Assembly (NCBI GenBank): GCA_000091205.1
Contig: AP006495.2
Length of the DNA stretch: 64,000 nt
Origin: Cyanidioschyzon merolae
Lineage: Eukaryota
Strand: one strand, 5' to 3'
A program made the position numbers and the translations under genes. This document shows, piece after piece, positions 7,749 through 9,050 of this stretch (position 1 is the stretch's first letter; every line of letters starts with the position of its first letter). The notes beneath the pieces were generated by a model that saw only the letters and a list, made by a program, of their open reading frames with translations, did no database searches and was not told the origin of the DNA.

Positions 7749-9050
7749 CTAATGCATCATCGCAGCAGCTTCTTGCATCACCAGTCTGGAGCCGGTGCCG
7801 CTGCCCACCACCACGGTGGAGGGGCCAGAGCTCGCCATCGGAGAGGCGACTGGACCCACTACCGTCGTTCCATCTGTAGAGGTCGTCGATCCACTCGAGG
7901 AAGATCCGTATGAGCTGCCGCTGCTGCCGGTAACGACGATGCCACCGCTGCTGCCGCTGCTGCCGCTGCTGCCGCTGCTGCCGGTAACGACGATGCCACC
8001 GCTGCTGCTGCTGCTGCTGCTGCTGCTTCCTGAAGACGGCTCCAGCTCAGTTTGAACCGGCTGCTGCTGGCCAGAGTTCTGGCTGTAAGGGTTGAACGGC
8101 TGCACCTGCTGCTTCGGGTAGTACTTCTTGTAATAACTCTTGTTGTAGTTGAACGGCCCAAAGACAGCAGTTGCGTTCCATCCGCTGGGAAAGTTGACCA
8201 CCGGATTCTTGTAGTAGCACCATGGAATATCCTGAGTCTGATACTTTTGCTGGAGGTACGGAGGCAGCAATATGGGATCGAAGCAGCAGTTACGCTCCAA
8301 GCACTGTTGCTCAGAAATGCCTGGGAAACCGCAGTTCTGGCGCTCCCGATAGGTGACGTTGCAGGTCATGAGCGGTTGATAGCAGAAGCCGTAGCTGTTG
8401 CCGAAGAAATTCACCTTCTGCTGCTTCTGCAGAGACTGACTGCTCGGGATAGAATCCTCATATGTCAGGTTCGGGTTCTGCTCCCAGCAGCAGCCCTGTG
8501 CCTCGCAATCCAGCTGGTTCATGTTATTCCAGCCGGAGTAGCATGGAACCTTGTAGTCGCCAACATTACAGCTCACATTGGGAAGTTGCTGCTGCGGTGG
8601 AGGCGAGTAGCCCACTGGAGCATAGCACCAGGGCCCGACCTCCGTCGGTGGAAGGGGATTCCAGCAGCCACCCTGCTGCAGACACTCTGCCGGAGTGATC
8701 TGCGGATAGCCGATCGCGACACGGTCGGCTGCGGAAATATTACAGATGGAGGTCGGCTCGTACGAGACGCAAACACCGTCTCCATTGTAGTTGAATCCCC
8801 AGTTCACCTGAGTCTGCCAGCAGCACTGGTAGTCGAAGCACTTCTGCTGGTCATTGCCAGCGTCACCACAGAGATAGATCGAGCAGGTTGTTCCAATATA
8901 GGTCGAGTTCAGGGAGCTCCACCGCTCCAGGTTGGAGTCCACCAGCATGGACGGCGCTGCGTTGACGCCGCCCATGGCGGCCACCATACACAGCAGCGCG
9001 AGCACTGCTGCTGCTGCCGCCGCTGAGATGAAAGAGAATAACTTACGCAT
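7749..9050 (-). CDS. Secreted multi-trefoil (P-domain) protein with a C-terminal Ser/Gly-rich mucin-like tail.
   Basis: 433-aa ORF. The N-terminus [31 protein letters not shown] is signal-peptide-like. Four Cys-rich modules are present; [24 protein letters not shown]...PWCYY fits the trefoil signature [KRH]-x2-C-x-[FYPSTV]-x3-[ST]-x3-C-x4-CC-[FYWH] exactly, and the others are CCW/GCW variants ([30 protein letters not shown]). The tail [27 protein letters not shown] is encoded by GCT/CTG repeats at 7915-8035. Confidence 0.7.
   Translation of the reverse strand: [433 protein letters not shown]

Follow-up and report, generated by a model that had tools for sequence, protein, structure and literature searches.

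What does a protein built almost entirely of trefoil modules do in a unicellular red alga? The question is raised by a minus-strand gene of Cyanidioschyzon merolae (assembly GCA_000091205.1, contig AP006495.2) that lies in a 64,000-nt stretch of DNA, the window, within which all positions given here are counted. A first-pass annotation described the product as a mucin-like, secreted, stand-alone multi-trefoil protein that was unusual in a protist-type genome. The stand-alone secreted-type architecture, with four trefoils followed by a Ser/Gly repeat tail, was borne out, with the signal peptide predicted from sequence. The gene is real, functional and strongly constrained, and within a known lineage-specific family it forms a distinct orthologue group that evolves slowly, keeps its synteny and has a tail of its own. 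We consider it moderately probable that the product acts outside the cell as an acid-stable glycan-binding or wall/matrix protein of the Cyanidiales, a non-subtelomeric, single-copy member of the trefoil factor (TFF)-like family.

The frame runs without interruption from the ATG at 9048-9050 to the TAA stop at 7749-7751 and encodes 433 amino acids; only 11 sense codons precede this ATG, the first in the frame. Alignment with the orthologues is collinear from the first Met through the C-terminus, and because they retain the stop and the final residues (...AAAMMH / ...IIH), the gene model is regarded as complete and unspliced. Comparison of the trefoil block with locus L001 by the Nei–Gojobori method gives proportions of non-synonymous and synonymous differences (pN and pS) of 0.07 and 0.70 and a dN/dS of about 0.04, and thus identifies a functional gene under strong purifying selection; the tail has a dN/dS of 0.26–0.5 (0.26 being the Nei–Gojobori value against L001). 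A stop-free antisense open reading frame (ORF) of 324 amino acids on the plus strand (8052-9026) was judged to be a shadow, since both the trefoil homology and the pS/pN asymmetry fall in the minus-strand frame. The mature chain, after removal of the predicted signal peptide, is about 43 kDa. Charged residues make up 10% of it versus 19–24% of four neighbouring window proteins, none of which looks secreted, and there are seven N-x-S/T sequons, of which those immediately following the first Cys of the second (CNIS) and fourth (CNVT) trefoil modules are kept in the orthologues.

The four modules, T1 to T4, are listed with the other features in Table 1. The full protein scores 92.8 bits (E 1.2e-26) against the Pfam Trefoil family (PF00088; gathering threshold 21 bits) in four matched stretches, and no other Pfam family was found in the whole protein, the linker and tail being without a match. 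Scored individually, T2, T3 and T4 exceed the threshold and T1 falls under it. T4, apart from its loop-3 insert, fits the six-Cys trefoil pattern of roughly C-x9/10-C-x9-C-x4-CC-x9/10-C, T1 and T3 have six Cys with changed loop lengths and T2 has four, giving the mature chain an even number of Cys (22, as 6+4+6+6).

Table 1. Features of the trefoil gene, its product and two syntenic neighbours (positions in the window)
Feature	Position	Residues	Strand	Basis or score
Complete single-exon coding sequence, four-trefoil protein	7749..9050		minus	433 codons + TAA; ORF list, Pfam, collinear orthologues, dN/dS
Predicted signal peptide	8955..9050	1-32	minus	Hydropathy and conserved pattern
T1, degenerate trefoil	8757..8891	54-98	minus	14.2 bits, E 0.04, under threshold alone
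T2, four-Cys trefoil	8616..8750	101-145	minus	38.7 bits, E 9e-10
T3, variant with loop-3 insert	8373..8576	159-226	minus	21.9 bits, E 1.6e-4, barely over threshold
T4, canonical trefoil	8208..8369	228-281	minus	55.0 bits, E 7e-15
Linker, Tyr/Lys/Gln/Asn/Pro-rich	8046..8207	282-335	minus	Motif GWNA[ST]...NK.[YW]YKKYYPK conserved; low model confidence
Ser/Gly-rich low-complexity tail	7752..8045	336-433	minus	Composition, hydropathy, alignment
Coding tandem repeat in tail	7914..8026			54-bp unit (18 amino acids) x2.1, 96% identity; Tandem Repeats Finder
LYR gene, 89 codons	4213-4479		minus	Synteny with relatives
Counterpart of ~600-amino-acid unknown protein	1017-3077		plus	Synteny with relatives

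T4 is the module that had been singled out before as a perfect match to the trefoil signature ending in ...PWCYY. Its Cys are spaced C-x9-C-x9-C-x4-CC-x21-C, loop 3 being lengthened by an 11-residue insert, and it aligns with human TFF1 (PDB 6v1d) at E 9e-10 and about 50% identity, including an identical run of 10 residues, as well as with porcine TFF2. It keeps Asn239 before the second Cys (C2) and Trp277 before the sixth (C6), which correspond to the two side chains that contact sugar in human TFF1 and TFF3 and give T4 the Asn/Trp site of TFF1. Both are invariant in the orthologues, and most of the distant collinear homologues have Asn or Asp together with Trp at these positions.

The remaining modules are the CCW and GCW variants noticed in the first pass, T1 and T3 having CCW and T2 GCW. 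The Cys of T1 (residues 56, 61, 71, 76, 77 and 94) enclose a short loop 1 (C-x4-C) and include the CCW pair, and the module lacks both Asn or Asp before C2 and Trp before C6. All six are invariant across ten collinear homologues, and T1 is accepted as a degenerate trefoil on account of its six Cys, CCW included, and of a position shared by all collinear homologues; it is recognisable solely through this Cys pattern and conserved position. T3 (Cys 161, 170, 182, 187, 188 and 223) has a loop-3 insert of ∼24 residues, with Pro before C2 and Phe before C6. T2, which aligns with human TFF3 (PDB 6v1c / 1e9t) in a search of PDB sequences, has only Cys 103, 123, 129 and 142; C2 and C4 are replaced (AIGYP and GGCW) and Trp141 before C6 is retained. 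Both missing Cys are present in the distant collinear homologues P0021, P0024, P0030, P0048 and P0100 (CG[WY]...CCW/CCF), so in this orthologue group one whole disulfide of T2 has gone. In canonical trefoil domains the disulfides connect 1-5, 2-4 and 3-6, and the joint absence of C2 and C4 would provide indirect support for that pattern here.

An AlphaFold2 model covering residues 33-335, built from an 11-sequence alignment, has a mean predicted local distance difference test (pLDDT) score of 61.5, with values of 70–84 in the modules and below 50 in the inserts and linker. T1 appears in it as a helix followed by strands (block pLDDT 76–79), and the T3 insert region is disordered (pLDDT <50, model residues 161-187). 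The best PDB match in a Foldseek search was again human TFF1 (6v1d), over one module only, with a target-normalized template modelling score of 0.84, a root-mean-square deviation of 1.6 Å and a probability of 1.00; weaker fold matches followed to TFF3 and to the trefoil domains of MGAM, GAA and SI.

The latter three are alpha-glucosidases in which a trefoil domain precedes a GH31 catalytic domain, and they share with the window protein the domain family and the weak fold-search matches. They differ in having a catalytic domain, since the window ORF has none. The ORF was considered as the N-terminus of a GH31 enzyme, or as an exon spliced to others downstream, and this was rejected: the C-terminus and stop are conserved, no GH31 coding sequence occurs in the window, and in two Cyanidiales relatives a GH31 gene (PF01055) is encoded separately, 3–6 kb downstream of the trefoil gene on the same strand. 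The gene order in these two genomes is methyltransferase, trefoil, Complex1_LYR, a gene for an unknown protein of ∼600 amino acids on the opposite strand, and GH31; in C. merolae, the GH31 gene would by this synteny sit just left of window coordinate 1. The same arrangement raises the idea that the trefoil protein partners the GH31 enzyme in trans, as a two-gene version of the animal fusion, which the downstream GH31 gene in both relatives and the existence of trefoil–GH31 fusions (P0062, and human MGAM, GAA and SI in the fold search) would favour. We regard this as very improbable. Two unrelated genes intervene, one of them on the opposite strand, and the proximity is not specific because the entire housekeeping block is syntenic. 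Moreover, the Cyanidium GH31 protein has no trefoil domain, its closest solved structures are alpha-xylosidases (7wj9, E 1e-83), and on reading of its first 83 residues (MGRSNLGGRRDAPKHPP...) there is no obvious hydrophobic signal segment, so that it may occupy a different compartment from a secreted protein.

Secretion of the trefoil protein itself is predicted from its N-terminus, where MRK is followed by an Ala/Leu-rich hydrophobic core of ∼23 residues and by VNA|AP at the putative cleavage site (VRA|AP or ARA|AP in the orthologues), a classical signal peptide by inspection. The top Kyte–Doolittle windows of the protein lie at residues 7-26. A glycosylphosphatidylinositol anchor or C-terminal transmembrane segment was ruled out because the C-terminal end is without a hydrophobic segment, the mean hydropathy of the last 25 residues being <0.9.

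The tail is composed of Ser (36%), Gly (19%), Val (11%), Thr (9%) and Pro (4%) and ends in a conserved C-terminus, ...SR[LM]..Q[ED]A..[MI][MI]H. 'Mucin-like' is a weak description of it: a mucin has a long, densely O-glycosylated Pro/Thr/Ser tandem-repeat domain, and this tail has 98 residues with little Pro and Thr and about two copies of an 18-residue unit. The repeat is nested, the 54-bp unit being superimposed on 9-bp and 3-bp periodicities, with a GCT/AGC triplet run of 27 copies (75% matches), and AGC accounts for 22 of the 35 Ser codons of the tail. Fifteen near-identical (∼99%) sequences from metagenomes and read archives range from 413 to 433 amino acids and differ almost only in the tail, where the alleles vary in frame in a poly-Ser run, in GSS units and in having one or two copies of the 18-residue unit; the window allele is the longest. 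Assembly noise may account for part of the variation, which as a whole looks like ordinary coding-repeat length polymorphism. Of the 'expanding GCT/CTG repeats' reported in the first pass, the GCT/AGC repeats and the length polymorphism thus stand, and the direction of change is not inferable. The tail is probably O-glycosylated. Together with the joint loss of C2 and C4 from T2 and the Asn/Trp site confined to T4, the low charge and the length-polymorphic tail are the new, if small, points about this protein.

The claim that such a protein is unusual in a protist-type genome did not survive comparison with the literature on this lineage. As early as 2007, subtelomeric 'trefoil factor' genes had been reported from C. 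merolae, where the list of subtelomeric genes also includes a protein O-mannosyltransferase gene (PMC1955436). Cho et al. (2023) described kelch–trefoil, trefoil-only and kelch–hint genes, including the non-subtelomeric trefoil-only gene CDCA10G3079 (PMC9812998), and a later study gave totals of 15 TFF-like genes for Cz. merolae, 16 for Cyanidiococcus and 13 for Cyanidium (Plant Cell 2026, PMC13353863). The trefoil-only architecture is thus not unusual for these algae, since the published sets include trefoil-only, non-subtelomeric genes. In the table rows of the 2026 study available to us, the TFF-like genes carry predicted signal peptides, marked SP(Sec/SPI) (PMC13353863). TFF-like genes in this broad sense, with a signal peptide and trefoil domains in a member of the Cyanidiophyceae, include the window gene, for which the signal peptide is predicted. 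The identifiers of its orthologues, CDCA07G2138 and CCYA09G2657, were not found in the portions of the text and supplements of the Cyanidiophycean trefoil papers that could be consulted.

The window gene shares its lineage, signal peptide and trefoil domains with the published kelch–trefoil and trefoil-only genes (PMC1955436, PMC9812998, PMC13353863). It is collinear over all four modules with CDCA10G3079 (P0100), at 28–30% identity, and on this ground the four-module layout appears to be the common plan of the Cyanidiales trefoil family. Several features set it apart. The loss of the T2 disulfide distinguishes it among Cyanidiophycean trefoil genes, and it lacks the kelch (galactose-oxidase-like) domain of the subtelomeric kelch–trefoil genes. 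Unlike these, which lie in duplicated subtelomeric elements, it is a single-copy gene inside a housekeeping block with one-to-one orthologues. The C-terminal parts also differ, the window protein having its Ser/Gly tail, the kelch–trefoil proteins a Thr/Pro/Ala-rich connecting peptide and the P0100 group a Cys-rich extension.

Close relatives of the gene were found only in Cyanidiales red algae. Identity over the trefoil region is 86% to the P0002 lineage, 82% to Cyanidiococcus yangmingshanensis (KAF6003057 / KAK4531800 = CCYA09G2657) and 71% to Cyanidium caldarium (KAK4536113 = CDCA07G2138), and matches at 99–100% identity (P0001) come only from JGI hot-spring-type metagenomes. UniProt labels the orthologues 'P-type domain-containing protein'. 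The adjacent methyltransferase is less conserved in the same three genomes (67, 70 and 65% versus 86, 82 and 71% for the trefoil block), and its relatives give the same taxonomic picture. In Cyanidium, whose orthologue belongs to this syntenic block, the gene is located roughly 230 kb along a contig of 506 kb. A subtelomeric location of the window gene was rejected, as the telomere repeat (AATGGGGGG)2 is absent from the window and the neighbours are housekeeping genes: methyltransferase, class II aldolase, RING/WD40, RRM, mitochondrial carrier, PI-kinase, HAD hydrolase, an Iso_dh-family dehydrogenase, 6-phosphogluconate dehydrogenase and SWIRM/Myb. No second trefoil gene or paralogue cluster was found in the window by a Cys-pattern regular expression and phmmer applied to all six-frame segments; only this ORF matched.

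Two collinear four-trefoil homologues were also recovered from the Logan run SRR31152685 (L004 and L005). One, P0021, is 43% identical to the window protein and has the same GWNAS...KKYYP motif; the other, P0030, is 799 amino acids long and is extended by a Cys-rich region and an acidic tail. The run points to a further, unsampled relative of the Cyanidiales that would have both subfamilies.

More widely, an exhaustive HMMER search of 1.84 billion representatives returned only 188 proteins at E<=1e-3. Among them are multi-trefoil proteins of amphibians and reptiles (integumentary mucin C.1-like and xP4-like, with one xP4-named protein from Varanus), a cnidarian protein, a trefoil-CBM26-GH31 enzyme and many trefoil-only metagenomic proteins. 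P0044, from the chytrid Geranomyces variabilis, is a fusion of five trefoil modules with a glyoxal/galactose-oxidase kelch propeller. Like the window protein it has multiple trefoils in a non-animal eukaryote, and its domain pairing is that of the Cyanidiales kelch–trefoil genes; it differs from the window protein in its kelch-type oxidase domain. Since vertebrate and many metagenomic examples occur among the matches, stand-alone multi-trefoil proteins are, on this search, not rare, and trefoil domains extend beyond vertebrates and Cyanidiophyceae. The chytrid, cnidarian and metagenomic trefoils are at odds with the statement that TFFs outside the Cyanidiophyceae occur only in vertebrates (PMC13353863), although they were already implicit in domain databases.

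What such a protein might do can be approached from the sugar site. Cyanidiales live in hot water at about pH 0.05–4. TFFs are lectins in which only two side chains touch the sugar, Asn or Asp before C2 and Trp before C6 (Jarva et al. 2020, PMC7221086), and the non-ionisable Asn of the gastric TFF1 and TFF2 keeps sugar binding active at pH 2.6 (PMC7221086). T4 has both residues, T2 has the Trp only, and T1 and T3 have neither. By analogy with vertebrate TFFs, the compact three-disulfide modules of the alga would provide a scaffold resistant to acid and proteases. The Asn and Trp of T4, as in gastric TFF1/TFF2, could engage a glycan displayed on the algal surface itself or on the wall glycoproteins of the alga, and a non-ionisable residue of the Asn239 type would let this interaction persist at low pH. 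Further contacts or spacing may come from the three divergent modules and a glycosylated tail. Taken as a whole, the protein might then organise or cross-link an acid-exposed extracellular coat or cell wall. The likeness to vertebrate TFF1/TFF2/TFF3 and xP4-like proteins lies in their being secreted, acid-facing and made of trefoil-only modules. The window protein differs by its ∼43-kDa size, long loop-3 inserts, three non-canonical modules and low-complexity tail, by the lack of a C-terminal free Cys, and by belonging to a unicellular alga with no known mucin partner or GlcNAc-alpha-1,4-Gal ligand.

Several points weigh against a glycan-binding coat protein. The canonical sugar-binding pair occurs in a single module, which would make the protein on its own monovalent for that ligand, and its even number of Cys leaves none free for dimerisation in the manner of TFF1 or TFF3. 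We know of no report of the vertebrate ligand, GlcNAc-alpha-1,4-Gal, from red algae. The structure model is only moderate in quality, and O-glycosylation of the tail is a prediction. TFF-like genes as a group are mostly expressed in the cell-walled diploid phase, for which protection at low pH has been proposed (PMC13353863), but in the portion of that study available to us one Cyanidiococcus trefoil-only gene is haploid-biased rather than diploid-biased (PMC13353863), and the family expression pattern cannot therefore simply be transferred to the window gene.

The enrichment of TFF-like proteins in the cell-walled diploid phase (PMC13353863) would also suit a purely structural wall/matrix glycoprotein, in which the trefoils serve as acid- and protease-stable knots and the Ser/Gly tail is the functional site of glycan attachment or cross-linking, with no lectin activity. 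Three of the four modules lack the full set of TFF sugar-contact residues, and the tail varies in length, as in many wall proteins. We nevertheless hold this to be unlikely, since the supposedly functional tail is the fast-evolving part of the protein, the trefoil block is extremely constrained, and T4 surface residues including the Asn/Trp pair are invariant, a combination that argues for a specific binding surface over a passive scaffold. Less likely still is a role in cell–cell recognition or adhesion, between gametes or at the haploid–diploid transition, in place of a barrier function. Polymorphism of the repeat tail between strains would fit it, and so would the strong diploid or haploid bias of family members and the use of related kelch/Hog/TFF genes as life-cycle markers, as given in the portion of the 2026 study at hand (PMC13353863). 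However, recognition proteins usually diversify, whereas the trefoil block is very conserved across genera (71–86%).

A bolder form of the glycan-binding coat protein, which we put forward as doubtful, is that the single-copy gene represents the ancestral core of the Cyanidiales trefoil family, encoding an acid-proof lectin whose T4 module would cross-link the alga's own surface glycans at pH 1–2. If true, it would be a unicellular counterpart of the gastric TFF–mucin barrier, and the trefoil lectin site would then either date from deep in eukaryote history or have arisen by striking convergence. Should the inferred function hold, a simple genetic test of the role of trefoils at very low pH would be at hand in a haploid or diploid alga with working homologous recombination. 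Because it is single-copy and highly conserved, the window gene suits a knockout better than the 12–24 near-identical subtelomeric copies.

The regions flanking the trefoil gene (3081-7748 and 9051-12320) are unusually long and contain no convincing gene except the LYR gene. No structured RNA was detected in them at Rfam gathering thresholds in a scan of 3000-12400. The corresponding upstream gap in Cyanidium holds a BSD-domain gene and a gene of 208 amino acids, neither with a detectable counterpart in the window. Within the upstream region, gene-free over 3.3–3.6 kb and otherwise unalignable between the window and the P0002-lineage contig, a block of ∼290 bp at 9579-9862, 530–810 bp upstream of the trefoil ATG, is 68% identical to L001 5083-5365. 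The block is probably non-coding, because its indels are not multiples of three, and the candidates for it are a promoter, a 5′ leader and an RNA absent from the catalogues. Nearby, at 9478-9492, is a short (CA)n microsatellite.

Beyond this region, the methyltransferase at 12321-13841 on the minus strand is S-adenosylmethionine-dependent (Methyltransf_12/11/25), conserved in other red algae and ∼50% identical to many cyanobacterial class I methyltransferases, which suggests a cyanobacterial (endosymbiotic) origin. The 6-phosphogluconate dehydrogenase ORF (59763-61742, minus strand) falls on the GC maximum of the window (0.666 in the bin 60001-62000 versus ∼0.55), and the ∼120 residues preceding its NAD-binding domain could represent either a targeting extension or a start (GTG) called too far upstream.

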